A DNA stretch of 64,000 nt from the IMG/VR virus record IMGVR_UViG_3300032323_000894, positions 1 through 64,000 of that record; one strand, given 5' to 3'. The translations under genes were made by a program, and so were the position numbers. A model generated the notes under the pieces. That model saw nothing but the letters and a program-made list of their open reading frames with translations. It searched no databases and was not told the origin of the DNA. Shown here piece by piece: positions 8,909 to 46,123 of this stretch. The DNA is from a virus. Position 1 is the first letter of the stretch; every line of letters starts with the position of its first letter.

Positions 8909-8909
<1 letters not shown>
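7851..8909 (+). CDS. Putative head-to-tail adaptor with C-terminal beta-sandwich (fibre anchor?)
   Basis: N-terminal [11 protein letters not shown] typical of head-completion proteins; GGAGG SD; TAATG-coupled to the collagen-like gene. Confidence 0.55.
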
Positions 8910-11736
<2,827 letters not shown>

Positions 11737-11737
<1 letters not shown>

Positions 11738-13956
11738 TGTCTGCAAAAATGAAAATACCAACCACCCCACATTATGTGGCTTTTGGTAGAAACGTGGGAA
11801 TAAGCGTACCGTATTCTGTAAGCTATTCTTTAGACGGCGTTAACTGGGTCCCGTCAACACTGCCAGCAGGGAGCGGTGGTCTTGGCAAAACAGCTTTTGG
11901 TGAAGATAGGTTTGTAGCAATAACCGACAACAATACTAACGAGGCTGCTTACTCAATTGATGGGATTACTTGGCTACCAACTACTCTGCCATCCGCCCAA
12001 TCCTGGACTACGGTAGCTTATGGTGGTGGAAAATTTGTCGCACTGGCAGCGGGGTCAAATGCTGCGGCTTATTCGACAGACGGAATCACTTGGACAGCAA
12101 CCACTCTACCAGCCAGTGGCTCTTGGTTGTCAGTAACTTACGCAGATGGCAAATTTGTTGCTATTGCTAGAGACTCATCGACTAGCGCCTATTCAACAAA
12201 CGGAATTACGTGGAACGCAGGGACCATGCCTTCTGGACTTTCTTGGCAACAAGTGGCCTATGGAGCGGGAAAGTTTGTTGCACTAGCTAATGGTTCATCT
12301 AACTTTGCTTATTCTACTAATGGTATTACTTGGACTATAGCTTTTTTGCCTTTTTCTGCAAACTGGATTTCGCTAGCTTACGGAGACGGAAAGTTTGTCG
12401 CACTAGTAGGTAACTCTTCTACCTCAGCGTATTCCTTAGACGGAGTATCCTGGACAGGTTCAAACATGCCGTCTTCTAGGTTTTGGAGCTCAATAACGTA
12501 TGGAGGTGAAAAGTTTGTGGCACTAGCATCTCAATCTACAACAACTGCCTACTCTTCTGATGGAATTACCTGGACAGTATCCACTATGCCCGTAGCAGCT
12601 GGCTGGTCCTCCATAGCTTACGGAGAATTTTTTCAAAAAACCCTGTCCTACTCCGCTAGTTCAAACGGGCTATGGAGAGACATGGTAGCGCCCTATGTAA
12701 AAGTTGCTGGTGCTTGGAAAGTGGCTAAGTCTGCGTTTATAAAGGTCAGCGGGCAATGGAAAAATTGGTTTTTACAAGACGGAATACTGGACACCGAATT
12801 TGCAACCAATCTTCCATTTCCTATTGGAAGTAGAATTTGGGCTGCTGAACCACAGCCTGATGGAAAAATAGTTGTTGCAGGGGAATGGAACTCGCCAACT
12901 ACTCCTCTTGGCCTTCTTAGGTTAAACGCAAACGGAACTCAAGACATCTCTTGGGCGGGGATTGAAATAACTGGAATTCAAGAAATTCTACTACTTCCTA
13001 CTGGTAAATTTTTACTAGGAAAAGAAACGGGTAGACTTGCACTGCGCGGTATTAATTCAAACGGAGCTTTAAACAGCGATTTTGGTAATTTTAATGACCG
13101 CGAACTTCGGTTTACGTTAGAAGATACTCCTTCCATGGGGTCTAACCCTGTCATCGTTGCTTGCCTAAGAAACACCCCAAGTGGGAAAGTTATCGTAGCA
13201 GGACAATTTGACCGTTATGGTGGAACTGGAGGGACAACTGGAACAGTTGTTCCTCATCTAATTCAATTAAATTCCAACGGAACTTTAGATACAGCTTTTT
13301 TAACAAACATAGGTACTGCTACAGGTGGTCGGCTGTTTAAGTATAGCGTAGCAGTTCAAGCAGATGGAAAGATAGTTATCGGTGGTAGTTTTACTTCTTT
13401 TAACGGAGTAGCCGCCCCGAGAATAGTTCGACTAAACAGCGACGGGACTATAGACACCGCTTTTATGGCAAACCTTGGAACGGGATTTTCTACATCCTCC
13501 TCAAAAGGGGTAGTTGGTAGCGTGTACGTGCAAAATGACGGAAAAATATTAGCGACACTAGGCTCTAACTCGTCTGCTCCGTTTACTGATTTTAACGGAA
13601 CTACTGTAGGAACAATCGTTCGTTTAAACTCTAATGGAACTTTAGACACGTCTTTTAGTACGTTAACTCTAGGGGTTAGTTTTCCACAAATTTTACCATT
13701 GTCTTCAGGAAAAATTTTTGTGTATGGTGCCAAGGCTCTTTTTAATAGGGGAATAGGAAGGCTTAACGTTGACGGAAGCTCAGACTTAGACTTTCTTAAT
13801 AACGTAGGAACAGGGTTTAGTAATAGTGCGTTCCTAAGAGACGCTGTCGAATTGCCTGATGGAAGAGTGCTAGTTATGGGAGATTTTAGTTCCTATAACG
13901 GGTTTGCTACTAAGCTAATTGCTCAAATAGGTGGGGACGGGTACTTTGTTAATTAA
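11737..13956 (+). CDS. Fibre tip/adhesin-like protein: BNR-like propeller plus delta-60 (DUF5122-like) propeller
   Basis: Repeats W.S..YG.GKFVA.......AYS.DGITW, then QPDGKIVVAG, QADGKIVIGGSFTSFNG and RLNSDGTID. Confidence 0.75.
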
Positions 13957-13990
13957 AGAATTGGTGCAGAAATACCCTAGTAGAATAGGT

Positions 13991-13996
13991 TAGTAT
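13991..13996 (+). promoter_or_regulatory. -10 box for a probable leaderless transcript
   Basis: TAGTAT 7 nt before ATG 14004; no SD. Confidence 0.45.
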
Positions 13997-14003
13997 AGAA
14001 GCT

Positions 14004-14228
14004 ATGACATCCATAAATTTTCCAGATACCCCAGCTGTAAACGACATTTACACTGTGGGCATTCGTTCATGGATTTGGACTGGGATTGCTTGGGAATCTG
14101 TGTCGGCTCCTGGACCCGTTGGTCCTACAGGTCCGCAGGGTGACTCCATTTCAAACATTGACGGTGGCATTCCAAACTCGCTTTATGGCGGAATCGTTTC
14201 TATTGACGGTGGGAGTGTACTTAGCTAA
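14004..14228 (+). CDS. Small fibre adaptor, paralog 1 (FP-type N-terminus, short collagen, double DGG C-terminus)
   Basis: MTSINFPDTP.VND.YTVG.RSW.W.G..WESV ... NIDGG...YGGI..IDGG. Confidence 0.75.
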   Translation: MTSINFPDTPAVNDIYTVGIRSWIWTGIAWESVSAPGPVGPTGPQGDSISNIDGGIPNSLYGGIVSIDGGSVLS

Positions 14229-14255
14229 GAGCACTCCTAGAGTATGCACTTAAGG

Positions 14256-14261
14256 TAAAAT
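14256..14261 (+). promoter_or_regulatory. -10 box for a probable leaderless transcript
   Basis: TAAAAT 7 nt before ATG 14269; no SD. Confidence 0.5.
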
Positions 14262-14268
14262 AAAAATT

Positions 14269-14514
14269 ATGACATCCATAGACTTTCCTAACTCACCAGC
14301 GTTAAATGATGTTTATACTGTAGGTAGTCGTTCTTGGAAATGGAACGGCACATTTTGGGAATCAGTAGGTACTACTGGACCCACAGGACCAACTGGCCCA
14401 ACAGGTGCTGAAGGTCCTGAAGGCCAGTCATTTGCCAACATGGATGGCGGTAAATCGGGTACTCTATACGGAGGAATAGCACCTATTGTTGGCGGAAGTT
14501 CAGGGAGTTTTTAA
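14269..14514 (+). CDS. Small fibre adaptor, paralog 2
   Basis: Clear paralog of 14004-14228. Confidence 0.75.
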   Translation: MTSIDFPNSPALNDVYTVGSRSWKWNGTFWESVGTTGPTGPTGPTGAEGPEGQSFANMDGGKSGTLYGGIAPIVGGSSGSF

Positions 14515-14774
14515 TGGCAGTACAAATTCAACTGCGCAATGACACCGCAGCAAACTGGTCTGCAAATAACCCTATTTTGGCTTTGGCCGAAATGGGCGTA
14601 GAAAACGATACTGACCAGTTCAAACTGGGTAACGGGGTTGACCCATGGAATGACTTGCCATACGGCGGCCTACAAGGTGCTGAAGGCGAATCATTTAACA
14701 ACATTGACGGTGGAATACCTGCTTCAATGTATGGAGGAATTAATTCTATTGATGGTGGAAGTGTAGGAAGCTAA
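14514..14774 (+). CDS. Mtd_N-like (major tropism determinant N-terminal) adaptor with double DGG C-terminus
   Basis: IQLRNDTAANW...NPILALAEMGVENDT.QFKLGNG..PWNDLPY. Confidence 0.78.
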   Translation: MAVQIQLRNDTAANWSANNPILALAEMGVENDTDQFKLGNGVDPWNDLPYGGLQGAEGESFNNIDGGIPASMYGGINSIDGGSVGS

Positions 14775-15040
14775 TGGCTGTACAAATTCAACTTAGGCGT
14801 GGAACCGCCAGCGAATGGACTAGCGCTAACCCAGTCCTAGCAGTTGCCGAAATGGGCATCGAGACTAACACTAACCAGTTTAAGATTGGTAACGGCTCTA
14901 CCCCATGGAACTCCCTTCCATACGGTGGTATTGCTGGTGCTGCTGGCCCTGCTGGTGCTACTGGCCCAGCTGGTGAACGAGGACCTGCGGGAACTGGTGA
15001 CGCTGGAACAATTAGCTCCTTCCTATTGATGGGGGCTTAA
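14774..15040 (+). CDS. Mtd_N-like adaptor with short collagen and FLLMGA C-terminus
   Basis: IQLRRGTASEWTSANPVLA.AEMGIET.T.QFKIGNG.TPWNSLPY. Confidence 0.78.
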   Translation: MAVQIQLRRGTASEWTSANPVLAVAEMGIETNTNQFKIGNGSTPWNSLPYGGIAGAAGPAGATGPAGERGPAGTGDAGTISSFLLMGA

Positions 15041-15041
15041 T

Positions 15042-15374
15042 ATGCCCGCGGCATACTCTGTATTAGGTCAGAGACGTCCTACCACCTTTGGTACTACTAC
15101 TCTTTTCACTGCGTCTAGTTCTCTAGGTACTGTAATTTCTACACTATCAATTACTAATACCACCGACATTACCTCGTCAGCTAGTGTATACATTCCTACA
15201 GTTGCTGGTGGAGGCACAAACGCCAACGCGCTACTGAGAAACGTAGAAATTTTTCCAAAGAGCACTGTAGCCCTAACTCTAGGTATCACCCTAGAGGCTG
15301 GGCGAGTACTTGACGTACAGTCAAGCGAATCTGGTGCGCTAACATTTCAAGCTTTCGGAAGTGAGATTTCTTAA
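15042..15374 (+). CDS. Small beta-rich structural protein (YSVLGQ...TF.AFGSE family, copy 1)
   Basis: Paralogous to 17479-17835 and to the split scaffold of 15374-17479. Confidence 0.7.
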   Translation: MPAAYSVLGQRRPTTFGTTTLFTASSSLGTVISTLSITNTTDITSSASVYIPTVAGGGTNANALLRNVEIFPKSTVALTLGITLEAGRVLDVQSSESGALTFQAFGSEIS

Positions 15375-17479
15375 TGCCAATTGCATATTCAGTCCTGGCT
15401 CAGAGCCAGCCAAGAGCAAACTTCGACGCAGCTACTTGGACTACAAGAGTATCCTCTACTGGGTCCGCGGCTATTCGTGCAGTTACTTTTGGTGCTAACC
15501 AGTACAATAAGCCCCTATTTGTTTCGGGAGACGCAGCAGGCTCTGTAAAGCTATCTGAAGATGGCATTATGTGGTCCGATGCTGTAACCGTAACTTCTCA
15601 GCCAATCAACGCTTTTGTATACACTACTAACTTTAACTCTACATTTAACAGCATTAACTGGTGGGTTCTAGGCGCTAACAACGGAATCATTGCTACCTCT
15701 TCTGACGCCATGACCTGGACTTCAAGAACCTCTGGTTTTGGAGCTACTGTGCCTGTTCTTGGTCTTGCTTACGGTGAAGGAAGCTACGTAGCTGTTGGTG
15801 GAGCAGGAACTATCACTGCTTCTACTGACGCAGTTACCTGGGTTACACGTACTTCCCCTGTAGTTACCGCTCTTACTTCCATTACTTATGGTGCTGACAC
15901 GTTTGTAGCCACTGGTACTGGTGGAGTTGTAACCTCAGATGACGGTGTTACTTGGGCCCAAAGAACTGCTGGATTTTCCGTAACCACTATCAACGCTGTT
16001 GTATTTGGTAATGGCCTGTTTGTTGTTGGAGACGAAGTTGGTAGGATAACCGTTTCTACTAATGGTATTACTTGGACTTCCCGCCCACAAATCCACAATG
16101 TTAGAGCGCTGTCTTTTGCTGAAGGCAACTACATTGCAGCAGGAGCTAACGGAGCACTTTCCACCTCTACAGACTCCATCACTTGGGTAACACGACAGTC
16201 TGCTTTTAACACTAACCTAGGAATTAATGGGGTTGCTTACGGTAGCAACGCCTACGGTAACAACATTGTTGCCCTAGTTGGTGACGGACACACAGTTAAC
16301 AGCGCTCTGCTAGAAAGCGTTCAGGACGCTTACACGGTTCCTGCAGGCTCTCGCGTAGTGCTCTCAAGCGTTACTATTACCAACCCTACTAATAGGGACG
16401 TTCTTGCGGATGTTTACCTGCGAAGCAGGTCCTCTTTCAATGTGGGCCCTTGGGTACCAAAAACGCTTACAGTCGCTAGCACCCAGATTAACTCAATTGC
16501 ATTTGGTGGAAATCAGTACATCACCGCTGGAAACAACGGGCAAGTAAGAACTTCTACTGACGCAGTTACTTGGGTTGAAAGATTCTCAGGTTTTGGTACC
16601 AGCAACGTGAACGCCGCAGTAGTGGGCTCGAGCACCGTTGATAGAGTAGTATATGCTGTGGGTGGTGTTGGTGGAAGAATTTCTACCTCTACAGACTCAG
16701 TAGTATGGTCTACTAGAACTTCTGGTTTTGGAACCAGCTCTGTAAACGCCCTTAGCTTTGGTCTTAGCACATTTGTTGCTGCTGGAGAACTTGGTGCGTT
16801 AACCACCTCTACAGATGGAACTACTTGGACCTCAAGAACTTCTAATTTTGGGTTTAATAGTGTTCGTGCCCTTACTTTTGGTGGCGGCCTATTTGTGGCT
16901 GCAGGAGACTCTGGTACTCTAACCACTTCTACTAATGGGGCTACGTGGACAACTCGCTCTCCTCAGTTCGGAACTACTCCAATTTTCTCACTTACTTTTG
17001 GAAACAACACCTATGTTGCTGGTGGCGGACTCGGCTTGCTGTCCACCTCTACCGATGGAATTACTTGGACTTCTCGTCCAGCAGTAGCAACTCTTGTAAG
17101 CAGCTCTAACATTCAGGCCCTTACTTTTGGTGATGGAGTGTTTGTGTTGGCTACGGCTGCGGCGCGAATCGCTACTTCTACTAACGCAATTACTTGGACG
17201 CTTAGAACTACAGTGGCTAACTTGTACACTAACTTTAGGTCTGCAGGATACGCTAACGGTGTATTCTTGGTAGGAGACGAGTCAGGAAACTTGGCTATAA
17301 ACGACAGAAACCTTGTCAATAAGCCAGCTAACGCCCTTGTATTTAGGCAGGCAATTAAGCCTCGAGACGTCAAGGCTTTCACAGTAGGAGCTACTCTTTC
17401 TGAAGGAGACGTAATTTCTTTTGAAAGTTCTGCTAACGCTACACTAACATTCCACGCTTTTGGAGGTAGAGAGTTTTAA
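15374..17479 (+). CDS. BNR/Asp-box-like double beta-propeller fibre protein
   Basis: Many ~40-aa repeats TSTD..TWT.RTS.FG...I.AL.FG...FVA.G..G. Confidence 0.8.
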   Translation: MPIAYSVLAQSQPRANFDAATWTTRVSSTGSAAIRAVTFGANQYNKPLFVSGDAAGSVKLSEDGIMWSDAVTVTSQPINAFVYTTNFNSTFNSINWWVLGANNGIIATSSDAMTWTSRTSGFGATVPVLGLAYGEGSYVAVGGAGTITASTDAVTWVTRTSPVVTALTSITYGADTFVATGTGGVVTSDDGVTWAQRTAGFSVTTINAVVFGNGLFVVGDEVGRITVSTNGITWTSRPQIHNVRALSFAEGNYIAAGANGALSTSTDSITWVTRQSAFNTNLGINGVAYGSNAYGNNIVALVGDGHTVNSALLESVQDAYTVPAGSRVVLSSVTITNPTNRDVLADVYLRSRSSFNVGPWVPKTLTVASTQINSIAFGGNQYITAGNNGQVRTSTDAVTWVERFSGFGTSNVNAAVVGSSTVDRVVYAVGGVGGRISTSTDSVVWSTRTSGFGTSSVNALSFGLSTFVAAGELGALTTSTDGTTWTSRTSNFGFNSVRALTFGGGLFVAAGDSGTLTTSTNGATWTTRSPQFGTTPIFSLTFGNNTYVAGGGLGLLSTSTDGITWTSRPAVATLVSSSNIQALTFGDGVFVLATAAARIATSTNAITWTLRTTVANLYTNFRSAGYANGVFLVGDESGNLAINDRNLVNKPANALVFRQAIKPRDVKAFTVGATLSEGDVISFESSANATLTFHAFGGREF

Positions 17480-17835
17480 TGTCAATAAGTATTCTAGCTA
17501 GAACAGCTCCCACAAGTACTACTCCGTTTGCTTTGACGGCCAACCTATTGTCAGGCTCTACTGAAGCTGGAGTTCTGTCCTCACTGGTAGTCACTAACAC
17601 CACGTCTTTGCCTGTAGTGTACAGCGTGTACCTAATCTCTAGGAATGGCCCAGCTACTCCGTCAATAGAGAACGCCCTAGTATTTCAGCAGACAATTAAA
17701 AAGAACGAAGTAATAGACCTAACTTATGGTCTAACTTTAGGTTGGGGAAGTGGCACCCAAGATGTTATTTTTGTAGAATCAGGAACTCCTGACGCTCTAA
17801 CATTCACCGCATTTGGAAGTAAGGTCGCAATCTAA
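17479..17835 (+). CDS. Small beta-rich structural protein (copy 3 of the 15042 family)
   Basis: LSSLVVTNTT..NALVFQ..I..LT.GLTL..ESG..ALTF.AFGS. Confidence 0.7.
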   Translation: MSISILARTAPTSTTPFALTANLLSGSTEAGVLSSLVVTNTTSLPVVYSVYLISRNGPATPSIENALVFQQTIKKNEVIDLTYGLTLGWGSGTQDVIFVESGTPDALTFTAFGSKVAI

Positions 17836-20012
17836 TGGCTATTAGACAGTCTAACGTATCTACTCTTTTTACTGCAGGACAGGGTGCCGCAGTTACACCC
17901 ATATCCAAGACTTACGTAGGTCAGTTTGCTCAGACTACTTATCTTGACAGATTCAAGATTCCTTCTGGACCTTACGTTGTAAACATGCAGATTCTAGGAA
18001 CTGAAGTTAACTCTGGTGTAGACATCAGGTTAGATAACCCTGAGGGTCAGTCAATTGCTAACTACAGGCTAATTAACACAGGTGTCACTACTACTAACTT
18101 TACAATTATGACAGACTACGTATTTTTAAATACTACCCCTGATAGGTTTGTTCCATCTAACCCTAATCTTACTTGGACTACCAGAACTTCTAACTTTGGA
18201 ACTACAAACATCAACGCTCTGGCGTTTGGTGATGATTTCTTCGCACCTGGAGTGTCGTCTGGACTGTTGTTGGCAGCAGGAGACAACACTCAGATAAGAA
18301 CTTCTACAGATGGCGTTACTTGGACTACTAGAACCACTACGTTTGCTACCCCTTCAGCCTCTCTTCGAGCAGCTACTTACGGTTTTAACGGAACCAACGG
18401 AGTCTACCTTGTTGCAGGTGACTCTGGTCAGATTGCTGGTTCTACAGATGGTCTTTCTTGGACTACTAGAGCTGCACCATTTGGAACTACAAACATTAAC
18501 GGTCTTGGATACGCTAACCGAATCTTTGTTGCCGTAGGTAGCAACGGAACTATCTGGACATCTGGAGATACCACTAGCTGGACAGGTAGAACATCTAACG
18601 TAGGAACTAACATTCTCCGTTCCGTTACTCACGGACTTGGTTTCCGTTGGGTTGCTGTTGGTGACAACGGAACAATCACTACTTCTGATGATTCGGCTGT
18701 TACTTGGACTGCAAGAACCTCTGGATTTACTAACAGCGATATTCTTACAGTTTGCTACGGCCGTGACAACACTTACGTTGCCGCAGGTACTCAGGGTCGC
18801 TTGGCTACCTCGTTTAACGGTGTTGACCAGTGGATTCAGAGAACTACTGGTTTTGGTACCGAGACAATTACTTCGGTAACTTATGGCGATGACATCTATG
18901 TAGCTGTCGGAGCTGCTGGAACCGTGGCCTCATCTGTTGACGGTATTACTTGGGTCAGACAGCCTTCAAATACTTGGGCTTCTACCCCTCTTCGCGCGGT
19001 TACTTGGGCGCCTATCGGAACTTCAACTGGTACTTACGTAACTTCTGGTGATGCAGGTACTCTGGCAACAGCGGTACCAGCTAGCACTGAGCGAGTTTCT
19101 GTCTCTAGATTGTTCGTTAACTTTAATGATGTTGGATTCATCGGTCGAGACGGTGTCTCAGGAGCAGTTACTTGGGCTACTGGTGGCTACGGCGATGGAT
19201 TGTTCTTTATCGGTGGTAGCGGTTCGACATTCTCTACTTCTACCAACGGCTTAACTTGGACAGCTCGAGGAAACGGACTCAGTGGAGATACCCGTGGAAC
19301 AGCTTTTGGTAACAACACCTATGTTTCTGCTGGAACTGCTGGCCGTGTAACCACTTCTACAGACAGCATTTCTTGGACTGCTAGAACTCCTAACTTTGGA
19401 ACTAGCGCAATCAACAGCCTTGTTTATGGAAATGGTCTGTTTGTACTCGCAGGTGAGGCTGGTCAAGTAAGAACCTCCGCAGACGCGGTTATCTGGACAA
19501 CTCGTGACGGTGGTTTTGGACCACAGACAGTTAACGCGCTACTTTACGCTAACTCTCAGAACCTATTTGTAGCCGCTGGAAACGCAGCAACAATTTCTAC
19601 CTCTACCAACGGTATTCTGTGGACATCACGTACTTCTGGTTACGCTGTAGACGTTAACCTTCGTGCGCTTACTTACGGAAATGGTTTGTACGTAGTTGCT
19701 GGAACTAACGGTAACTTGGCAGTTTCTACTAACGCAATTACTTGGACCACTAGAAACGCAAACTTTGGAACTAGCACCATTAACGCTCTAACTTTCCACA
19801 GAAACTTGTTTATGGCTGTAGGAGACGCTGGTCAGATTAGGACTTCAACCGACACTATTAGCTGGACATCTCGTGTATCAAACACTGGTGGTCAGTTCTT
19901 AGGCGCGGTGTCTGCTTTAGGAACCTACTTGGCAATCGGTGTTAGTGGATTGGTCCATTCAAAGCAGCAGGGTGCAGCCCTGGTTCAGTTCGCGCCAGTA
20001 GTTAGTAACTAA
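17835..20012 (+). CDS. BNR/Asp-box-like beta-propeller repeat protein
   Basis: Same TSTD.WT.RT repeat family; TAATG-coupled. Confidence 0.8.
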   Translation: MAIRQSNVSTLFTAGQGAAVTPISKTYVGQFAQTTYLDRFKIPSGPYVVNMQILGTEVNSGVDIRLDNPEGQSIANYRLINTGVTTTNFTIMTDYVFLNTTPDRFVPSNPNLTWTTRTSNFGTTNINALAFGDDFFAPGVSSGLLLAAGDNTQIRTSTDGVTWTTRTTTFATPSASLRAATYGFNGTNGVYLVAGDSGQIAGSTDGLSWTTRAAPFGTTNINGLGYANRIFVAVGSNGTIWTSGDTTSWTGRTSNVGTNILRSVTHGLGFRWVAVGDNGTITTSDDSAVTWTARTSGFTNSDILTVCYGRDNTYVAAGTQGRLATSFNGVDQWIQRTTGFGTETITSVTYGDDIYVAVGAAGTVASSVDGITWVRQPSNTWASTPLRAVTWAPIGTSTGTYVTSGDAGTLATAVPASTERVSVSRLFVNFNDVGFIGRDGVSGAVTWATGGYGDGLFFIGGSGSTFSTSTNGLTWTARGNGLSGDTRGTAFGNNTYVSAGTAGRVTTSTDSISWTARTPNFGTSAINSLVYGNGLFVLAGEAGQVRTSADAVIWTTRDGGFGPQTVNALLYANSQNLFVAAGNAATISTSTNGILWTSRTSGYAVDVNLRALTYGNGLYVVAGTNGNLAVSTNAITWTTRNANFGTSTINALTFHRNLFMAVGDAGQIRTSTDTISWTSRVSNTGGQFLGAVSALGTYLAIGVSGLVHSKQQGAALVQFAPVVSN

Positions 20013-20021
20013 GGAGTTAAA

Positions 20022-21371
20022 TTGGCCATTTCACAGATAGTTAACCCAAACCCAGTAACGGGTGTACCTGTTGGTACTGAGCTAGTTCACTCTAGCTACA
20101 TTAGGACCACTCAGAACAAGATTATTACTAAGGACCGAGTTCCTGCGTCTATTCCTCCTGGTACATACGCTGTTGTAGGTATGCGTACTCGTGGAGCGAA
20201 CAACGTTCTAGTTACTTTTAGGGATGCAGATGATGAGACGGTATTCGGCTATCCTGTGCTTCCTGCTGCCAGCAGGCTTCTTACCGAATTTCCGTCTAAC
20301 CAAGCTACTATGGTTCAGCTTATGGTTGTTGACAAAGAAGTAACCTCTGTAACTTACAACTACTCTTGGCAGAGTTGGACAGAGCGAACCCACTCTATGA
20401 GCACAACTACTGGCCATATCAATGCTATGGCTTATGCTAATGGTTATTTTGTTGCTGTGGGAAACAACGTCAACCAGTTCTCTGTCACTAACTCTTCTGA
20501 TGGAATTACCTGGACAGTAAGACTAAACAGCGCCGCCTCGGCCTCAGCGTTTGCTCTTACTTACGGAAATTACCGTGGAAATAAAACTTGGGTTGCCGCT
20601 GGTACTGGTGGAATTATTTTTAGCTCTACAGACAGCAACACGTGGATTCAAAGAACCTCCCCTACTGTACAGCAACTACAGGCTGCTGCGTTTGGTGTTT
20701 CTACATTCCTTCTAGCGGGAGCGTCTGGCGCACTCGTCAGCTCTACTGACGGATTTACTTGGATTAACAGAACCTCAGGATTTGGTGTTACTCCAATTAA
20801 CGCTTTGGTTTTTGGAAATGGCGTTTTTGCCATGGCTGGAGATGGAGGTAGACTTTCTACTTCTACAGACGGCATTAACTGGACTACTAGAACTTCAGGA
20901 TTTGCTACTACGTCTATTCGTGCCCTTGCATTTGGTAACGGGTTGTTCCTAGCTGGTGGAGATAACGGTGTCCTAACTACCTCAACAGATGCGATTACTT
21001 GGACTACAAGAAACGCAAACTTTGGTACCACCGTAATTAGGTCTATCATTTGGGGAGAAGGCCTTTACGTTCTTGCTGGTGATAACGGTTCAATTAGGGT
21101 ATCGACAGACGGCTATGAGTGGCAAGTTAGACCGCAGCTATTTACTGGTACCCAGATTAGAGCCCTAACTTACGGCTCTGGTATCGGTATTTTTAGTAGC
21201 CCAGTATCGGGTACTTTGCCTCCTCTTAACACCTACCCAGCTCAAATGACTCCTATCCTAGGAAACACAGGTGGCCAGTACATTGCAGCTGGAGGAAACG
21301 GTACTTCTGGAGGCCGTTTGGCCCAGTCTGAACAGGGATTTGAGGCGACAGTTCAGGTTTACAGAGTTTAA
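20022..21371 (+). CDS. BNR/Asp-box-like beta-propeller repeat protein
   Basis: Same repeat family; AAGGAG SD with TTG start. Confidence 0.78.
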   Translation: MAISQIVNPNPVTGVPVGTELVHSSYIRTTQNKIITKDRVPASIPPGTYAVVGMRTRGANNVLVTFRDADDETVFGYPVLPAASRLLTEFPSNQATMVQLMVVDKEVTSVTYNYSWQSWTERTHSMSTTTGHINAMAYANGYFVAVGNNVNQFSVTNSSDGITWTVRLNSAASASAFALTYGNYRGNKTWVAAGTGGIIFSSTDSNTWIQRTSPTVQQLQAAAFGVSTFLLAGASGALVSSTDGFTWINRTSGFGVTPINALVFGNGVFAMAGDGGRLSTSTDGINWTTRTSGFATTSIRALAFGNGLFLAGGDNGVLTTSTDAITWTTRNANFGTTVIRSIIWGEGLYVLAGDNGSIRVSTDGYEWQVRPQLFTGTQIRALTYGSGIGIFSSPVSGTLPPLNTYPAQMTPILGNTGGQYIAAGGNGTSGGRLAQSEQGFEATVQVYRV

Positions 21372-21382
21372 AACTGTAGTAG

Positions 21383-21388
21383 TATACT
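21383..21388 (+). promoter_or_regulatory. -10 box for a probable leaderless transcript of the glycosyltransferase genes
   Basis: TATACT 7 nt before ATG 21396; no SD. Confidence 0.55.
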
Positions 21389-21395
21389 AATTACT

Positions 21396-22073
21396 ATGGA
21401 TAAAAAACCACATGTAAATTTAATCATTGCAACACCTGGACACTCATTGATGTCAACTTACGTTCGCAGCCTTTTGGCTGCTACGCAGATGTTGGCCTCA
21501 AAAGGAATTACTTGGGCTTGGAGCTCAGAGTATTCCTCCCACGTAGCTGACGCTCGTGAAATGACTCTAAATGGCGACAACCAAAACGACCCTTCTGAGC
21601 AGCGTCCGTTTAAAGGCCAAGTAACCTACGATAAAATTCTTTGGATTGATTCGGACATTGCGTTTACTCCTGAAGACGTACTAAAGCTGTACGAGTCAGA
21701 CTACGACGTAGTTACTGGCGCGTACTTGCTGGCTAACGGAGAAGTTGTTGTCTACAAAGAGCTTTTTGGAACTGGCTACAACTACGATGATGTAAAAGAT
21801 ATGACAGAGCCAATAAAAGTATTCGGCGCTGGATTCGGCTTTATTATGATAAAGCAGGGCATCTTTGAACAGCTAACTCGACCTTGGTTTCAGTCACCTA
21901 TGGCATCAAAAACCATGGATGATGGAACCGAATTTACTTTCCCAATCATGGGAGAGGACCTTTCTTGGTGTAAGAGGGTCAACGACTTAGGGATTGACAT
22001 TTGGTTTGACCCTACAGTTCGTGTAACGCACCATAAAATGATGAAACTAACCTGGGAAGGAATTAAACCATGA
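21396..22073 (+). CDS. GT-A fold glycosyltransferase-like protein
   Basis: ILWIDSDI (DxD), GAGFGF.MIK, GEDLSWC and W.DP.V.V.H.K motifs. Confidence 0.72.
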   Translation: MDKKPHVNLIIATPGHSLMSTYVRSLLAATQMLASKGITWAWSSEYSSHVADAREMTLNGDNQNDPSEQRPFKGQVTYDKILWIDSDIAFTPEDVLKLYESDYDVVTGAYLLANGEVVVYKELFGTGYNYDDVKDMTEPIKVFGAGFGFIMIKQGIFEQLTRPWFQSPMASKTMDDGTEFTFPIMGEDLSWCKRVNDLGIDIWFDPTVRVTHHKMMKLTWEGIKP

Positions 22074-22321
22074 GTAGATACCGCTACGAAGTTGATTCAG
22101 AAAACGCACTACGTTTCTGGGACGACGAGAATCCAAACGAGAACGACGCACCGTTCTTCTTCCAGCCTGACTACCCTAATGGCGAGCCATGGGGAACCAA
22201 GAAGGCTGCAGAAGACTGGGCAAAGCTATTTGTTGCATCACTAGAGGACCCTGAGTCTGCGCTAGTTCCTGGAGACTCTCCAGCAGAACCAAGCAAGCCT
22301 CGCCCTGTAGCTGCAGAGTAA
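22070..22321 (+). CDS. Hypothetical acidic protein
   Basis: ATGA overlap with the upstream gene; 83 aa. Confidence 0.65.
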   Translation: MSRYRYEVDSENALRFWDDENPNENDAPFFFQPDYPNGEPWGTKKAAEDWAKLFVASLEDPESALVPGDSPAEPSKPRPVAAE

Positions 22322-22351
22322 CAACTACTTCACTCTAGATAAGAGGAGAGC

Positions 22352-23401
22352 ATGAAAGTAGCTGTTTATACCATTGCATTAAACGAACAACAGTTCGTAA
22401 AGCGTTGGGCAGACTCCTGTAAAGAAGCAGACTTCAGGTTTATTTTAGACACTGGGTCTACGGACGGTACAGTTGAGTCTGCCTACGCTAATGGTGTGGA
22501 TTGCATGATTGCATCCATCAAGCCTTGGCGATTTGATGACGCCAGAAACGCGTCTCTCGCGCTAATCCCTGACGACGTTGATTACTGCATTGCCTTGGAC
22601 ATGGACGAAGTCCTACTTCCAGGATGGCGAGAAGAGCTTGAGAAAGCCCACAAGTTGGGGTTGACTAGGCCTCGCTACAAGTACACTTGGTCTTGGAAGT
22701 CGGACGGAACTCCTGGCCTACAGTACGGTGGAGACAAAATCCACGCTAGAAACGGTTACAGGTGGAAGCACCCTGTACATGAAGTTATTACTTCAGACCG
22801 TATCGAAGAAAAACAAGGCTGGGTTGGATTAGAAATCCACCACTACCCAGACGATACTAAATCCCGTGGCCAGTATCTGCCACTATTAGAGCTCTCTGTC
22901 AGAGAAGACCCTTCAGATGACAGAAACGCCTATTACTTTGCTAGAGAACTTTTCTTTAACAGACAGTATGAACTAGCCGCCCAAGAGTTTGAGCGCCATC
23001 TTTCACTTCCTAGAGCTGTATGGCGACCAGAGCGAGCAGCCTCTATGAGGTACATCGCAAAGTGTAAACCAAAAGAAGCACGACACTGGTTAGAGAAGGC
23101 TACAGAGGAAGACCCTAACAGGCGTGAGGCGCTCGTAGAATTGGCTAACTGGGCCTACCAACACAAACAATGGGAGCTCTGCCTACAGTACTCTGAGAGG
23201 GCGCTGGAGGTCGCTGAGAAGCCTTTGGACTACCTCTGTGAGGAGTTTGCTTGGGGAGCCCTTCCATACGACCTAGCGGCGCTAGCGGCTTACAACACAG
23301 GTGATTTTAAAAAGGCTAAAAAGTACGGTGCAAAGGCTGCTGAACTAGAGCCAGCTGATGAGCGTTTACAGCGAAATCTAGAGTTCTATACAGGACAATA
23401 G
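22352..23401 (+). CDS. GT2 glycosyltransferase with C-terminal TPR repeats
   Basis: LDTGSTDGT, FDDARNASL, LDMDE (DxD) and WKHPVHE, then TPR-like helices; architecture of protein-modifying GT2s. Confidence 0.88.
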   Translation: MKVAVYTIALNEQQFVKRWADSCKEADFRFILDTGSTDGTVESAYANGVDCMIASIKPWRFDDARNASLALIPDDVDYCIALDMDEVLLPGWREELEKAHKLGLTRPRYKYTWSWKSDGTPGLQYGGDKIHARNGYRWKHPVHEVITSDRIEEKQGWVGLEIHHYPDDTKSRGQYLPLLELSVREDPSDDRNAYYFARELFFNRQYELAAQEFERHLSLPRAVWRPERAASMRYIAKCKPKEARHWLEKATEEDPNRREALVELANWAYQHKQWELCLQYSERALEVAEKPLDYLCEEFAWGALPYDLAALAAYNTGDFKKAKKYGAKAAELEPADERLQRNLEFYTGQ

Positions 23402-23425
23402 AACCAAAGACTTTACAGGAGAAAC

Positions 23426-23929
23426 ATGCCAGCAAAAGCAGTGATTCAATACCGCAGAGACACATCCTCTAACTGGACGGCAGTCAACCCAATTCTTGCA
23501 AGCGGTGAGCCTGGATATGAAACCAACACCACCTTTTTTAAGATTGGCGATGGCACCACTCCGTGGAACGCTCTTCCCTACAAAAAGGGTGACGACGGAG
23601 TAGATGCCCCAACTATTATTGGGTTTAATGACCAGACCGTAACTTCGTATACCTTAGCCTTGTCAGACAAAGACAAAATGGTTACTCTAGCCAACTCGTC
23701 AGCGGTAACTCTCCTAGTGCCTACTAACGCAGCAGTTCCGTTTGCAATTGGCACTACCATTAACATTCTCCAAGCAGGAACAGGACAAGTAACGGTCGCC
23801 GCAGTTACCCCTGGAACTACCGCAATTCGCTCCACTCCTGGTGTGAAATTACGCGCCCAGTGGTCCAGTGCTTCCTTGTTTAAGTGGAAAGCTAATGAGT
23901 GGATTCTTTCAGGAGACACCACACTCTAA
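23426..23929 (+). CDS. Mtd_N-like adaptor fused to a C-terminal beta-rich fibre domain
   Basis: IQYRRDTSSNW...NPILASGEPGYET.T..FKIGDG.TPWN.LPY; C-terminus SYTLALSD...LRAQWSSA..W.LSGD. Confidence 0.75.
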   Translation: MPAKAVIQYRRDTSSNWTAVNPILASGEPGYETNTTFFKIGDGTTPWNALPYKKGDDGVDAPTIIGFNDQTVTSYTLALSDKDKMVTLANSSAVTLLVPTNAAVPFAIGTTINILQAGTGQVTVAAVTPGTTAIRSTPGVKLRAQWSSASLFKWKANEWILSGDTTL

Positions 23930-25056
23930 TGCCACGCTTTTTCCTAGGCGGGGTATTCACTTCAGTCCGTGAAAGACTCGCGGACGCATTCGTGCGAGGT
24001 GATAGAGACGATTTAGGAGTAGCTCAAGACGGTAGCCTATGGACTAATATTCGTTCTGGATTAAGAATTTCAAATAACCGTGTAGTAGCTACAAACCCTG
24101 GTCAATTTCCTATGTCCACTATTGACATGCCCTCTACTAACGTAGACATCGCACTAACAGGTGTGACTCAGGGTGCTGGAGCGGCTATTTGGGTACAGAG
24201 CAGTGCTGATTGGACAGCAGTTACTATTGAACAAGAGTCTCGGGTTATTCCTCCTACTACCCAAACCCTAACAGGAACTTTTCAAACCTCTGCTAGCAAC
24301 AACTCCTTTACTTTTACACGGGAAGAGGATGTCCCATTTACCGACTTTGCTGGTGGTAATCCATTTACTGAAAATGGATTTAAACAAGTAACAAATAATG
24401 CGACTGGGTTTAGGAATGCTACTGGTAACTTTTTTTACACCTCACGGGTAAACTTTACGTATTTAGTTACGGGCACAGGCTTCTACACCTATGTGTCAGG
24501 TAAACCACCCAGAGTTCTTACGGGCTCATTTGTCTGGGCCAGAAACGCTACAGGAACTTACAGTATTACGGAAAGAGCACCGTACACATACAGAGAGTCG
24601 TTTACTTTTCAAGTAACAAACACAGTAGCCTGGTCTCGTACAGCGTTTAACGCTCTAGAGCCTTTTACTAATTACTTTACGCGGTCGGTTACGGAGTTTG
24701 TTCCTGGATTTAGTTTTACGGTGTTTGCTCCGTTTACCTACTCAGTAATAGTTCCAGAAACAACAGTTTTTGACCAAAAAGTTAGTATTCGACAATCTAT
24801 TGCTGGAAATATTCAGTTACTAACTTCGTGGGTAGTCTCTTCTAGCCAAGTAATTCGCTCTTTATTGGTGCGTACCCGAGGTAACGAAGTGACTGTTCGC
24901 CCGTATTCTGATGGAAACTTAGTAGCTCAAGTTGGCGACGACCTAGTATACACTGCTACTGGAGCTTCAGTTAATACGCGATTCGGTATAACCCTAGCTC
25001 CTTCCCCAAACAATCAAGGAAACACGGTAGCCACCACAGCTTCTATAACTACGTAG
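23929..25056 (+). CDS. Putative fibre tip protein with a Phe/Thr/Tyr-rich insertion
   Basis: TAATG start at 23929; beta-rich flanks around a low-complexity aromatic/Thr segment. Confidence 0.6.
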   Translation: MPRFFLGGVFTSVRERLADAFVRGDRDDLGVAQDGSLWTNIRSGLRISNNRVVATNPGQFPMSTIDMPSTNVDIALTGVTQGAGAAIWVQSSADWTAVTIEQESRVIPPTTQTLTGTFQTSASNNSFTFTREEDVPFTDFAGGNPFTENGFKQVTNNATGFRNATGNFFYTSRVNFTYLVTGTGFYTYVSGKPPRVLTGSFVWARNATGTYSITERAPYTYRESFTFQVTNTVAWSRTAFNALEPFTNYFTRSVTEFVPGFSFTVFAPFTYSVIVPETTVFDQKVSIRQSIAGNIQLLTSWVVSSSQVIRSLLVRTRGNEVTVRPYSDGNLVAQVGDDLVYTATGASVNTRFGITLAPSPNNQGNTVATTASITT

Positions 25057-26168: not shown

Positions 26169-26805
26169 GTTTCAGTCTACTCAACCTACTTTTAGCCTAC
26201 CTACTCCTACGCCCACCTATAAGAATACTCCCGACTGGTACAGGCAAATGCCTGGTGTAGAGGGCACTGAAATGACCATTAAAAAATGCGTGCCATTCTT
26301 AGACTCTATGACTTCTGGATACACGCTCTACTTGGCAGCAGATGTAGAGTTTGTTAAAGATGGGTTTAAGACGTTTACTAAAGTCCCGACACTAACTGCT
26401 CATTATAAAGAGCAAACCTCAATGGTTCCTGTGCCGTCAGAGTATGACCCACAGCCTTACAAATGGGAAAACTTCTTTGTTATGACTACTCCAAAAGGAT
26501 ATAGCACTCTTTTTACTCACCCATTAAATAGGTCCGAACTTCCGTTTATGTCTATAGCGGGCATTGTAGATACGGACAATCATCCAATTCCAGTTAATTT
26601 TCCGTTTTTTATAAGAAAAGATTTTATTGGAATTATCCCTGCAGGAACCCCGATTATCCAAGCAATACCTTTTAAAAGAGAAACTTGGGTCTCTGAAGTA
26701 GACGAAGAAAACGGAGTTAAAGAGCACCCAGACCTACATAAAATGCACAACCCACCATTTGGCTTTTATAAAAAGCACTGGTGGTCTAGAAAGAGATACT
26801 ACTAA
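26143..26805 (+). CDS. dUTPase-fold-like (DUF6065-like) protein, paralog 2
   Basis: Shares KKCVPFLD.M.SGYTL, THPLNR and IPAGTPI.Q.IP.KR with 25087-25776; GGAGG SD. Confidence 0.5.
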   Translation: MLNRPKKVKFQSTQPTFSLPTPTPTYKNTPDWYRQMPGVEGTEMTIKKCVPFLDSMTSGYTLYLAADVEFVKDGFKTFTKVPTLTAHYKEQTSMVPVPSEYDPQPYKWENFFVMTTPKGYSTLFTHPLNRSELPFMSIAGIVDTDNHPIPVNFPFFIRKDFIGIIPAGTPIIQAIPFKRETWVSEVDEENGVKEHPDLHKMHNPPFGFYKKHWWSRKRYY

Positions 26806-27794
26806 TGGAAACTATTTTTGTAGTTTTTCCAGCACTAGACGACCACGAAATCTTTGCAACCATAGAAGACGCATTTAAAAAAGCAGAACATCCAGAAAGA
26901 TTAGTTTTGGGGATAGCTCCTCTGTACTCTACTCGGAGGTACCTTAGAGATGTCAAAAAGTTTACAAAGAAATTTGGCAGTCAAATACGACTATCTGAAA
27001 TAAAGGTAACTGCTAAAAATATCTTTGAAACTTTAGGCGTGGGTAAAGGTAGGAGAGCTGCTGCAGATTTGTACGCGGGGGAAGACTACGTGCTACAGAT
27101 TGACTCTCACACTTGGTTTGCGCAAGGCTGGGACACTAGGCTTATTGGCCTACACAAACAGGCTGTAAAAGAACTGGGGCTAAGCAAAGTTCTTCTCACG
27201 GGGTATGCGGGGCACTACAAGTACTTTTCAAAGGATATTAGAGAGCCCTTTACAGACGACGGAAAACTAAGGTACCCGTTTATTAATGAGGAGCAAAGAT
27301 TTTCAAACATAATTCCAAACTGGTTTGACGTGCCCCTTCCAGACGACTGCCTTGATTCGTTTGTTCCTTCAGTAAAATTTAACGCAAACTTTTCTTTTGG
27401 AGACAGTAGTTTTGGGGAGTATAACGGGCTGTTAACTGAAGCCGTGTTTTTTGACGAGGAACTTACTCAGACAATAAACCTTACCGCTGCTGGATTTAAC
27501 TTAGTTTTCCCCAATATTAAAGAGCCTTTAATTTGCCATTTATATAGCGACCATTTTAATGAGTTTAGTGAAGCTAGGCCTAGCTTGCCTGACTACATGT
27601 CTCCTTTATTAGGTCAAGTTTTTCACAAAAAAACTAATGACAATTTTACGGCGTTTGTAAAAGACCCTAAAAACCAACCAGCAATAAAGAAGTGGGAAAA
27701 GTACGCTAAATGTAGCCTGACGTTTGGGCCCTTAAGAGCCAACTACGTGCCTGAGTACTACATAAACCAGCCTGATTCTGACCTGAAATTATAG
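26805..27794 (+). CDS. GT60-like (Skp1-hydroxyproline GlcNAc-transferase-like) glycosyltransferase
   Basis: TIFV...D.E...TI...F..A..PERL..GI; G...GR..A..LY.GEDY.LQIDSH..F..GWD..L; F.ANF.F; F.EE. Confidence 0.75.
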   Translation: METIFVVFPALDDHEIFATIEDAFKKAEHPERLVLGIAPLYSTRRYLRDVKKFTKKFGSQIRLSEIKVTAKNIFETLGVGKGRRAAADLYAGEDYVLQIDSHTWFAQGWDTRLIGLHKQAVKELGLSKVLLTGYAGHYKYFSKDIREPFTDDGKLRYPFINEEQRFSNIIPNWFDVPLPDDCLDSFVPSVKFNANFSFGDSSFGEYNGLLTEAVFFDEELTQTINLTAAGFNLVFPNIKEPLICHLYSDHFNEFSEARPSLPDYMSPLLGQVFHKKTNDNFTAFVKDPKNQPAIKKWEKYAKCSLTFGPLRANYVPEYYINQPDSDLKL

Positions 27795-40928: not shown

Positions 40929-41204
40929 ATGATTTTTACAGATAGTAGATACGCTTCTGGTATTTTGACTAAGTCGTATGACGCAAGAAAGCAGTCCTAC
41001 GGAGTTACTGTTTTTCGCCAATTTACCGAAGACTCTTCGTCTTTCTTTTACTACACGTGGACTCAAAAAGACAGGATAGATTTAGTAGCAGCTGAGCTAT
41101 TAAACGACCCAAATCTTTGGTGGTTAATTATGGATTACAATCCAGAAATTTCAAACCCATTTGATATTCCCCTAGGAACTGTGCTAAGGATACCTGGTGA
41201 GTAA
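40929..41204 (+). CDS. LysM-like baseplate protein (T4 gp53/P2 gpX-like)
   Basis: DRIDLVA...L.DP.LWW.I.D.NP.I..P..IP.GT.LRIP. Confidence 0.8.
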   Translation: MIFTDSRYASGILTKSYDARKQSYGVTVFRQFTEDSSSFFYYTWTQKDRIDLVAAELLNDPNLWWLIMDYNPEISNPFDIPLGTVLRIPGE

Positions 41205-42609
41205 AGAACCTATTATTGGAAAATCTAGGCGCTCCTCTCCCTTTAGTGTTCAATTTCCGACATTGCCTTCTATAAAGGCGCAACCTCAGACCGTCATGTT
41301 AAAGCAAAAGCAAAAGAAACATGACGTATTAATTATTGAATATCCTGCAACTAGCTTTAAAAACGCAAGAGTTTTAAAAACAGGTGTTCCTGTTAAGTTT
41401 GTCTGGAGACAGGGTTCTCGAAAAGCTGAGTGGCTTGGATATGTCACTTCTGTTTCTAGAAAATCTTCTTCTCAATTTTTGCAGCCTATGAAAGTTTACT
41501 GCGTTGGTGCTTCGTTTGTACTAAAACAAACTAAAACTAAAACGTACAAAAATAAAACTGTATCTGAAGTTGCTGCAGTAATTGCTAAAGAAAATAATCT
41601 TAGATTTGTCGGAGATAGGGATAAAAGAAGATTTAATCAGCTAGCTATTTCTGGGCACAGTCAGTGGGAATGGTTACAAGAGCAGGCTAATCGTGTAGGT
41701 TACGTGGCTTATGCCCAAGGAACTAACTTAGTGTTTAAGTCAATAGACAAGATAATTGACGAAAAATCTTTAGATGCGCCAATTTTTCAATTGTGGAGTC
41801 CGTACATACCAAGAACACCCCAAGGATTAGACAGAACTTTGGATTCTATAGAGGTGTTGGTTGGAGAAAACAACGAAGGCGATTACCCCACAAGGGCTGT
41901 AAAACAAACTGGTGGAGTAGACCCTGTAAAAGGAACATCATTTACTAATAAAAAGTCACCTTCAAGGTCAGGAAAGTCTGTTAGAGAAAGTGTTGCAGAT
42001 ACGCTGTTTGATGAGCTTAATAGTGACCAAGTAGTTAGCAGTAAAGCTGACTCTAGAGCAGCTTCGTCAGGAGCAGCTGAACTTGCAAGGTTTAATATAC
42101 CAGCTAAAGTTATTGGGCAGGGAGACCCTCGAATACACCCGTATCAAATGATAGAAATACAGGGCTCAGGAAATGACACTGATGGCCACTGGATTGTGCG
42201 GGAAGCTACGCACAAGTTTCTTTATGGAGGTTACTACACTATAGAAATGATTGTAGCTACTGACGGTCTTGGAAAAAATACCAGAAAAACTAGAAACTCT
42301 TCCAGAAATAGAGCTATAGACCCATTTAGGTCAGAGACTGTAAAGAGCGCAATTGATGTTGAGTACTTACTTAACAAAAACAAACGCCCTTTTAATTCTC
42401 GAGGAAATGACTCTTCAGTAAACCTAGCTGTAGAGCTAAACAGGACAGGAAATCCTTTTTCAATAGGAAATTCCAGGGAAACTAGCTCGGCTAGACTTTC
42501 TGCTAATAAGCCACTGTTAACAAATGTTGAAAACCAAGGGTATTTACGAACACCAACTGTTTGGAAAACTAAGGCCCCAACCTCAAGAAATCCAAGAAAA
42601 GCTAGTTAA
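41197..42609 (+). CDS. Baseplate hub (P2 gpD/T4 gp27-like)
   Basis: TVSEVA..IA.EN.L, S.WE.L...A.R.GY, GDPRI.P...IEI.G...DG.W.V.EA.H. Confidence 0.75.
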   Translation: MSKEPIIGKSRRSSPFSVQFPTLPSIKAQPQTVMLKQKQKKHDVLIIEYPATSFKNARVLKTGVPVKFVWRQGSRKAEWLGYVTSVSRKSSSQFLQPMKVYCVGASFVLKQTKTKTYKNKTVSEVAAVIAKENNLRFVGDRDKRRFNQLAISGHSQWEWLQEQANRVGYVAYAQGTNLVFKSIDKIIDEKSLDAPIFQLWSPYIPRTPQGLDRTLDSIEVLVGENNEGDYPTRAVKQTGGVDPVKGTSFTNKKSPSRSGKSVRESVADTLFDELNSDQVVSSKADSRAASSGAAELARFNIPAKVIGQGDPRIHPYQMIEIQGSGNDTDGHWIVREATHKFLYGGYYTIEMIVATDGLGKNTRKTRNSSRNRAIDPFRSETVKSAIDVEYLLNKNKRPFNSRGNDSSVNLAVELNRTGNPFSIGNSRETSSARLSANKPLLTNVENQGYLRTPTVWKTKAPTSRNPRKAS

Positions 42610-42624
42610 TTTTAAAGGAGTCTA

Positions 42625-45652: not shown

Positions 45653-46123
45653 ATGCCATCTAACTACCCTTCCAGCATCAAGGTCTGGTCACCAACCGAT
45701 GCGGGATTTAACTATCCAGAAGATTTAAAAGAGGTTGTTTACGCTCGCCACGTTACTACTATTTACGATGAAGTAACTGCTGTTCAGCAAGAATTAGGCG
45801 CAGGCTCTGGAGGACTAAAGACCAGTGTTATTGACAGTCTTTCTCCTTTTGACCCACTTACTAGCGGAAAAACTTGGCCAAATCTTAGGACAAGACTATT
45901 CAACATGGAACAAGGGGCTATTGACGGCTCCCTTAAGCGCGTAAGCATTTTAGGTGGGTCAACTATTACCCCATCTTCAGCTTCTACTGTAGGATTAACT
46001 GTTCGAGCTGCAACTGTACAAACGGCAAACTTAATTGAAATTAGAAACACAAGTAACGTTGTCAGAACCGCCTTTGGTTCTGATGGTCTAATCTCAGGAG
46101 TAATTGACGGCGGCAACGCTTAA
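45653..46123 (+). CDS. Hypothetical tail protein ending in a DGG motif
   Basis: AGGAG SD; C-terminus SGVIDGGNA. Confidence 0.65.
   Translation: MPSNYPSSIKVWSPTDAGFNYPEDLKEVVYARHVTTIYDEVTAVQQELGAGSGGLKTSVIDSLSPFDPLTSGKTWPNLRTRLFNMEQGAIDGSLKRVSILGGSTITPSSASTVGLTVRAATVQTANLIEIRNTSNVVRTAFGSDGLISGVIDGGNA

Follow-up and report, generated by a model that had tools for sequence, protein, structure and literature searches.

In the long tail fibre of phage T4, several gene products (gp34-gp35-gp36-gp37) are joined end to end by noncovalent contacts, small connector proteins are included, and the genes are neighbours in assembly order. No joint of this fibre is known to be built from a reusable pair of peptide and cap. 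The fibre proposed here resembles that of T4 in being encoded by several neighbouring genes with small connectors among them, while the T4 fibre has no sequence relation to these connectors; in contrast to T4, one short motif pair, carrying a two-state specificity residue, recurs here in hundreds of unrelated phages. A cap domain of the type discussed below (Mtd_N, Pfam PF18454) is found on the Streptococcus phage hyaluronidases HylP (PDB 6X3M, 2C3F, 2YVV) and on the Mtd protein of Bordetella phage BPP-1, and the same domain forms the N-terminal heads of the 86-, 88- and 167-aa proteins of our locus, the 88-aa protein aligning to HylP residues 7-81 (E 4e-9). A degenerate version of the layout described here is seen in BPP-1, where mtd lies 15 nt 3' of the gene for the fibre protein Bbp9, whose last residues are ADLGGIA. 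Our literature search found no paper describing the C-terminal DGG tail, its joint with Mtd_N, a partner for Mtd_N or a partner peptide for the HylP/Mtd cap. Unlike HylP and Mtd, the 86-aa protein carries the cap without an enzymatic or receptor-binding body, and a putative docking tail follows instead.

In branched receptor-binding complexes, small N-terminal modules likewise mount several different distal proteins on one virion site, an arrangement of the kind envisaged by the initial annotation. The adaptors of these complexes have larger anchor and gp10-like branching domains and dock side-on, whereas the 86-aa protein matches Mtd_N only and its joint is predicted to be 3:3 and end-on. Such complexes, with anchor-branch adaptors, are those of phages G7C and CBA120 and of Klebsiella phages (PMC6872550, PMC13579863). 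Mini-adaptors of 63-97 aa, with an Mtd_N head and a DGG-x-Ala end, are encoded by uncultured phages (L006, L009, L015, L018, L020 and others). They have the same head as the 86-aa protein, nearly identical over the first 15 residues, a similar size, and the same position directly 3' of a fibre gene with a Lys-type DGG tail. They differ in carrying only a short one-unit end followed by a gene with an M-A-D-I-P-S-N head, whereas the 86-aa protein has a full two-unit tail of the Pro class and is followed by an Mtd_N gene.

The fibre island and its 86-aa protein

The window, that is the whole stretch of DNA analysed here, comprises the first 64 kb of an IMG/VR virus record that is 75.6 kb long and whose completeness is put at 78%. 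It originates from a contractile-tailed phage, and the + strand carries every gene of its map, from the terminase through the replication genes (Table 1). Four large proteins of the fibre island contain many S-x-D-G-x-T-W (Asp-box-like) repeats and match Pfam DUF5122 and DUF6242; the repeats point to beta-propellers, and these proteins are likely the distal bodies of the fibre system. Amid the fibre genes are three glycosyltransferase-like genes, of which one matches PHROG 13126 at exact length; glycosylation of the fibre is possible. The island also encodes a 942-aa collagen-like fibre protein in which W-x-W/Y hairpin motifs are repeated between Gly-X-Y runs; these hairpins are similar to the one at the N-terminus of the 74-aa and 81-aa proteins. 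A promoter and terminator scan of positions 14000-15400 gave nothing exceeding chance, and a DNA search with the region of the 86-aa ORF gave no match in cultured phages.

Table 1. Positions of the genes, domains and motifs of the window that are discussed in the text.
Feature	Position	Strand	Basis or remark
Terminase	1063	+	
Portal	3477	+	
Major capsid protein	6136	+	
Fibre island	~8909 to 25056	+	
942-aa collagen-like fibre protein	8909-11737	+	
Asp-box-like repeat proteins (4)	11737-13956; 15374-17479; 17835-20012; 20022-21371	+	DUF5122, DUF6242
74-aa protein, paralogue of the 81-aa protein, Pro-class DGG tail	14004..14228	+	ORF, motif
81-aa protein: IDFP hairpin head, short collagen stretch, Ser-class DGG tail (NMDGGKS)	14269..14514	+	ORF, complex model
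86-aa probable double-ended connector: head of the Mtd_N type, three Gly-X-Y triplets and a DGG tail	14514..14774	+	ORF, relatives
Mtd_N head domain of the 86-aa protein, Asp at residue 10 (LRNDT)	14526..14639	+	Pfam PF18454, genome scan
DGG tail module N63-G82 of the 86-aa protein (NIDGGIP..YGG..IDGG), Pro class	14700..14759	+	motif scan, alignment, profile search
88-aa protein: Gly-10 head of the Mtd_N type (LRRGT), collagen triplets and an end in SSFLLMGA	14774..15040	+	Mtd_N 56.6 bits
Mtd_N domain of the 88-aa protein	14786-14902	+	genome scan
110-aa protein, start MPAAYSVLGQ, head type found after FLLMGA ends	15042..15374	+	PHROG 1276
Glycosyltransferase-like genes (3)	21396; 22352 (within 21396-23401); 26805 (26805-27794)		
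167-aa protein: Asp-10 head of the Mtd_N type (YRRDT), tip-like C-terminal domain	23426..23929	+	Mtd_N 47 bits
Mtd_N domain of the 167-aa protein	23444-23560	+	genome scan
Tail sheath	34082	+	
Tape-measure-like protein	37231	+	
Baseplate genes (gp25-like, J-like, V-type OB)	41197 to 45595	+	
156-aa protein beside the baseplate genes, VIDGGNA end (46100-46120)	45653..46123	+	motif; candidate anchor
Replication genes	3' of baseplate genes	+	

The 86-aa ORF starts with ATG and stops with TAA. As the initial annotation had noticed, its N-terminal part is of the Mtd_N type: residues 5-42 match PF18454 with 44.2 bits (cut-off 26.3, E 1.8e-11), and a scan of the whole genome located three such domains, on the 86-, 88- and 167-aa proteins. 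Searches of Pfam and PHROGs returned Mtd_N-type matches only; the anchor or gp10-like branching domain expected of a branched receptor-binding protein adaptor was not found in either. The Pfam Collagen family (PF01391) gave no match in the 86-aa protein, which has just three triplets (G52-S60), and only sub-threshold matches in its 81-aa and 88-aa neighbours. The protein ends in NNIDGGIPASMYGGINSIDGGSVGS, in which the module N-I-D-G-G-I-P-A-S-M-Y-G-G-I-N-S-I-D-G-G is followed by four residues before the stop. The pattern N-x-D-G-G-x5-[YF]-G-G-x5-G-G is thus present near the C-terminus, with all invariant columns and the Tyr, and it is shared with the 74-aa and 81-aa proteins encoded upstream, as had been proposed before; this agreement is far beyond chance. 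Two exact-length relatives (P0003, P0004) have 78-85% identity to the 86-aa protein over residues 47-86, the region searched, and more distant double-ended relatives of 77-122 aa exist. The monomer model is poor (pLDDT 56), its tail and first strand being disordered. We consider it probable that this ORF encodes a real and conserved double-ended connector in a fibre built of many small trimeric pieces arranged as a linear relay. The protein is most likely a coupling piece that clips two fibre proteins together end to end, and probably not a branch point that multiplies itself.

A widespread tail module and the gene that follows it

When 23 tails were aligned, the N, the D and the three G-G pairs were invariant, the Tyr was nearly invariant and the spacing was fixed. 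The profile built from this alignment was searched against 1.84 billion representative proteins and matched 799 protein clusters at E<=0.001. Among the best 150 of the 799 clusters, the match nearly always ends a few residues from the C-terminus, in proteins 34 to 760 residues long and mostly shorter than 100. Many longer tail-bearing proteins were found by the exhaustive profile search and none by a shared-word search; tblastn with the 32-aa tail alone gave no match, for which the low-complexity filter is the probable cause. The module is found in no chain of the Protein Data Bank. The two DGGs of the 86-aa protein had been described as two sockets. This description is not supported: in every member of the family they form one conserved module of 20 residues, and the complex model presented below sets one head trimer upon three tails.

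Viral contigs were then retrieved with a degenerate DNA pattern that covered nothing but the tail, Mtd_N being absent from the query. A newly built Mtd_N profile was run over the fetched loci, counting the tail ORFs with at least 160 nt downstream. Among the matches listed, 91 of 95 distinct tail ORFs have an Mtd_N head starting at -25 to +60 nt of their stop, and 67 of these 91 head starts (again among the matches listed) are exact TAATG/TGATG overlaps. With 129 Mtd_N domains in 1.06 Mb of the same loci among the matches listed, the background chance of an adjacent Mtd_N head is roughly estimated at ~0.5%. In the window, the junctions from the 81-aa to the 86-aa gene and from the 86-aa to the 88-aa gene are both TAATG overlaps, the latter at 14772-14776. 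The pair is also found in cultured phages: in Cellulophaga phage phi13:1, gp023 has a DGG-type end and gp024 an Mtd_N start, both being annotated as virion proteins (MS/MS), and degenerate versions occur in Synechococcus phage S-CBS3 (gp18 followed by gp19) and in BPP-1 (Bbp9 followed by Mtd). In the four exceptions to this order among the matches listed, the next gene has an M-A-I-D-F-P-N-S-P hairpin head (L087, L114, L155), and the 74-aa tail of the window likewise precedes the 81-aa gene with its IDFP head and not an Mtd_N gene (junction at 14196-14271). These cases would suit IDFP heads as a possible regular second socket for DGG tails, but most IDFP genes follow unrelated C-termini.

Small proteins consisting of a head and a tail recur between the fibre genes of many related contigs. 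On some of these (L006, L009, L010, L015, L018, L020, L034), a row of four genes is observed, namely (i) a collagen fibre with a Lys-type DGG tail; (ii) an Mtd_N mini-adaptor of 63-97 aa ending in DGG-T-A; (iii) a protein of 200-440 aa with an M-A-D-I-P-S-N start and an I-D-G-G-T-A end; and (iv) an Mtd_N fibre with an M-P-V-Q-T-V-I-K start.

The predicted joint and its covarying residue pair

The complex modelled here combines the 81-aa protein in three copies (its alignment having 10 rows) with three copies of residues 1-56 of the 86-aa protein, comprising its head (59 rows). Three runs gave an ipSAE of 0.78, 0.80 and 0.80, compared with 0.01 for the best of the three controls; the mark applied is reached by 58/80 solved complexes and 2/110 mismatched pairs, and is a rough guide for a six-chain job with its own alignments. 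The partner pLDDT was at least 87 and at least 62% of the contacts were common to the runs. Since no solved chain contains the tail, the score is unlikely to come from a memorised structure. The predicted joint consists of one head trimer placed end-on on three tails (3:3), with residues 55-65 and 67 of the 81-aa tail against residues 2-10, 14-15, 17-18, 20 and 45 of the 86-aa head. Its confident part reaches from the first DGG unit to the Tyr and leaves out the tail's second half; it brings the invariant residues of the tail (N, D, GG, Y) against invariant residues of the head (Q6, R8, W15, P20, W45). The contacts rise in step on both sides (59 with 6, 61 with 8-9, 63 with 10), which suggests that the tail would lie along the first strand of the Mtd_N head. 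The 81-aa protein is the likely donor of the tail for the 86-aa head, and the 88-aa protein the likely acceptor of the 86-aa tail.

The identity of tail residue +2 after the first DGG was compared with that of head residue 10 in 95 distinct adjacent pairs among the matches listed. Pro in the tail was followed by Gly in the head in all 48 of 48 pairs, and Ala or Ser by Asp in 43/47 (Fisher p 6e-24). This pair has the highest corrected mutual information (0.68) of 1150 tail-by-head position pairs among the matches listed; next come the equivalent position after the last Gly-Gly with head residue 10 (0.43) and position +2 with head residue 14 (0.41), likewise among the matches listed. The least-error contacts of the model include those of 81-aa tail residue 63 to residues 10 and 14 of the head, and the model could not have learned this coupling from the alignments, as these were unpaired. 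Two more scans, in which the tail residue was the sole criterion of selection, provided a second sample of 98 distinct pairs that were new (among the matches listed), with 43/43 for Pro-Gly and 51/55 for Ala-Asp, so that both samples pooled reach 91/91 for Pro-Gly and ~92% for Ala/Ser-Asp among the matches listed. Short or variant tails among the matches listed obeyed the same code in 25 of 26 cases, DGG-x-Ala occurring with Asp in 19/20 and DGG-x-Val/Ile with Gly in 6/6.

The class switches on two supported branches of a tree of the short head domain and about 10 times on the best tree, among the matches listed, and in 41 of 45 disjoint closest contrasts between Gly and Asp heads (matches listed) the tail obeys the code. 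A phylogeny-aware sign test has low power with its two supported contrasts, and we do not claim statistical independence of the covariation, which therefore rests on its rank among the position pairs, on its agreement with the model and on the second sample. It could come in part from linked cassette lineages, the end of the tail and the start of the head being ~100 nt apart and co-inherited. Among the matches listed, head residue 10 covaries in addition with the position that follows the last Gly-Gly, and the second DGG unit may touch a head as well.

In the window, the Asp class comprises the tails of the 81-aa (Ser/Ser) and 156-aa (Ala) proteins and the heads of the 86-aa and 167-aa proteins, and the Gly class the tails of the 74-aa and 86-aa proteins (both Pro/Val) and the head of the 88-aa protein. 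Both junctions of the window match the code: KS in the 81-aa tail stands before ND in the 86-aa head, and at the next junction IP in the 86-aa tail stands before RG in the 88-aa head. From the natural pairings we infer that tails and heads of mismatched class would fail to bind. The initial annotation had supposed that a DGG tail docks on an Mtd_N head; this idea is supported by the near-universal gene adjacency, by the complex model, which predicts the physical docking, and by the covariation at a top predicted contact.

The same gene order could also arise without any docking, if tail, stop and head formed a cassette for recombination and translational coupling in which a flexible Gly-rich end carries the ribosome-binding site of the next gene. 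Conserved N-termini of fibres are classic recombination points in the mosaicism of phage tail fibres, and the junction is nearly always a TAATG overlap among the matches listed. The codons of the last Gly-Gly are moreover biased towards GGAGG (14490-14516 and 14750-14776 in the window, for example), and an SD-like 4-mer is found there in 87/139 tails among the matches listed, compared with 37 at the first and 21 at the middle pair, which are free of this bias. The last codons of the tail thus double as the ribosome-binding site from which the overlapping head gene is read. The module is however conserved at the level of the protein, over 799 clusters with varied codons, and its invariant N, D and Y and its first and middle Gly-Gly lie too far upstream for a role in ribosome binding. 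A single residue pair, which is also a predicted contact, covaries well above the rest, and the controls of the complex model stayed at or below 0.01. A cassette devoid of docking is thus improbable.

A proposed linear relay of connectors

Taken together, these data are in agreement with a relay in the order of the genes, for which we infer both the assembly order and the place on the virion. With its Mtd_N head, the 86-aa protein would take the C-terminal DGG tail of the 81-aa protein, or that of the baseplate-side protein ending in IDGGNA. Its own DGG tail would plug into the 88-aa protein at the Mtd_N head, and the FLLMGA end of the 88-aa protein would in turn lead to the proteins encoded at 15042 and 15374 and to the propellers. 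The choice of the partner would be set by one contact, in which Pro at +2 goes with Gly-10 of the head and Ala or Ser at +2 with Asp-10, and the 86-aa protein would thereby convert a site of the Asp class into a site of the Gly class. The relay would run from the 81-aa to the 86-aa, to the 88-aa and to the 15042 and 15374 proteins, with no self-polymer.

The initial annotation had instead considered that the 86-aa protein binds its own copies through head and tail, giving branch points or chains of variable length, capped by the proteins at 14774 and 23426. Both halves of the joint are indeed present on this one protein, both DGG units covary with head residue 10, so that two contact sites per tail are possible, and the window holds four DGG-type ends for three Mtd_N heads, which makes a one-to-one occupancy of every tail impossible. 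Some relatives even have self-compatible classes: a 77-aa relative has a Gly head and a Pro tail, and short-tailed mini-adaptors have an Asp head and a DGG-x-Ala end, so the avoidance of a self-fit is not a general rule. The 86-aa protein, in contrast, combines an Asp-class head with a Pro-class tail, a mismatch shared with P0003 and P0004 and reversed in P0152 and P0035 (Gly head, Ala tail), and a Pro tail precedes a non-Gly head in 0/91 natural cases among the matches listed; self-branching is hence not supported. In the model, the three tails contact the head trimer by their first DGG unit alone, the two DGGs belong to one module in every family member, and the strict gene order with TAATG coupling suits defined neighbours. 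The monomer model, weak evidence at its pLDDT, has no fold-back of the tail on its own head. We hold binding of the protein to itself to be very improbable.

Of the two proteins supposed to bear tips, only one has a tip-like end. The C-terminal domain of the 167-aa protein matches the ends of the PHROG 8780 and 18179 fibre proteins and is tip-like. The 88-aa protein, in contrast, is read as a further adaptor and not a tip: it ends in SSFLLMGA, and the gene after such an end encodes another type of head in the window as well as in relatives.

A putative second type of joint was noticed at such ends: (S/P)-F-L-L-M-G-A ends are followed within 3-40 nt by M-x-T-x-Y-K-V-L-A-Q-S-A-P starts. At these junctions (window 15014-15046; L009, L015, L018, L037, L182, L190 and others), a YKVLAQ-type start follows in 14 of ~19 FLLMGA ends among the matches listed, including the step from the 88-aa protein to 15042, and three F-L-L-M-G-[AV] ends precede Mtd_N genes instead (matches listed).

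The DGG tail might otherwise serve as a recognition tag for another partner, such as a glycosyltransferase of the island or an assembly chaperone, and the glycosyltransferase genes at 21396, 22352 and 26805 do lie amid the fibre genes. Over hundreds of contigs, however, it is an Mtd_N head and not an enzyme that constantly neighbours the tail, the inspected stretch of the cultured phages with the pair (phi13:1, S-CBS3) contains no glycosyltransferase, and the covariation of tail and head is left unexplained, so that we regard such a tag as highly unlikely. That the small ORFs are mere remnants of a larger decayed fibre gene, as the Lys-type tail found on collagen fibres of 240-290 aa in relatives and on an 81-aa protein here could suggest, is scarcely credible, since every one of the ORFs starts at an ATG of its own, immediately preceded by an SD-like sequence, exact-length homologues of the 74-aa (with a near-identical representative, P0045), 81-aa and 86-aa proteins recur across many samples, and the invariant residues of the motif are all kept.

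Returning to the relay, a candidate for its baseplate side is the 156-aa protein, whose gene lies 3' of the gp25-like, J-like and V-type OB genes and whose place at the baseplate is proposed from this position. Its VIDGGNA end, already pointed out in the initial annotation, is indeed present, and 62 homologues retain an end of the form [VI]-I-D-G-G-[NTS]-A down to 38% identity. Following the code, it should take heads of the Asp class, i.e. those of the 86-aa or 167-aa proteins; DGG-x-Ala ends pair with Asp-10, and the earlier suggestion that this protein could recruit the adaptors fits with both observations. Its monomer model is weak (pLDDT 69, pTM 0.36), and no significant fold or sequence match to it was found in the PDB.

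New here are the code of classes, the FLLMGA junction and the assessment of whether the protein assembles with itself. For the window, the picture of a branching polymer is replaced by that of a defined relay in which five small genes in a row lead to the propeller proteins, and the code provides a testable rule of partner choice which would explain why proteins made of little more than a head and a tail exist. We see an even chance that these elements belong to a previously undescribed universal snap joint of fibres, spread over many phage lineages, with a two-state code and tiny double-ended class converters. If so, the converters would let one anchor site display different distal fibres, and the wiring of fibres could be read from sequence and re-wired by the swap of one residue pair. 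If the joint is real, the order of fibre assembly and the placement of tips in uncultured phages could be read from the ends of their genes, and its ~20 + 45 residues would offer a compact part for mounting foreign receptor-binding domains on a phage in laboratory work on host range.
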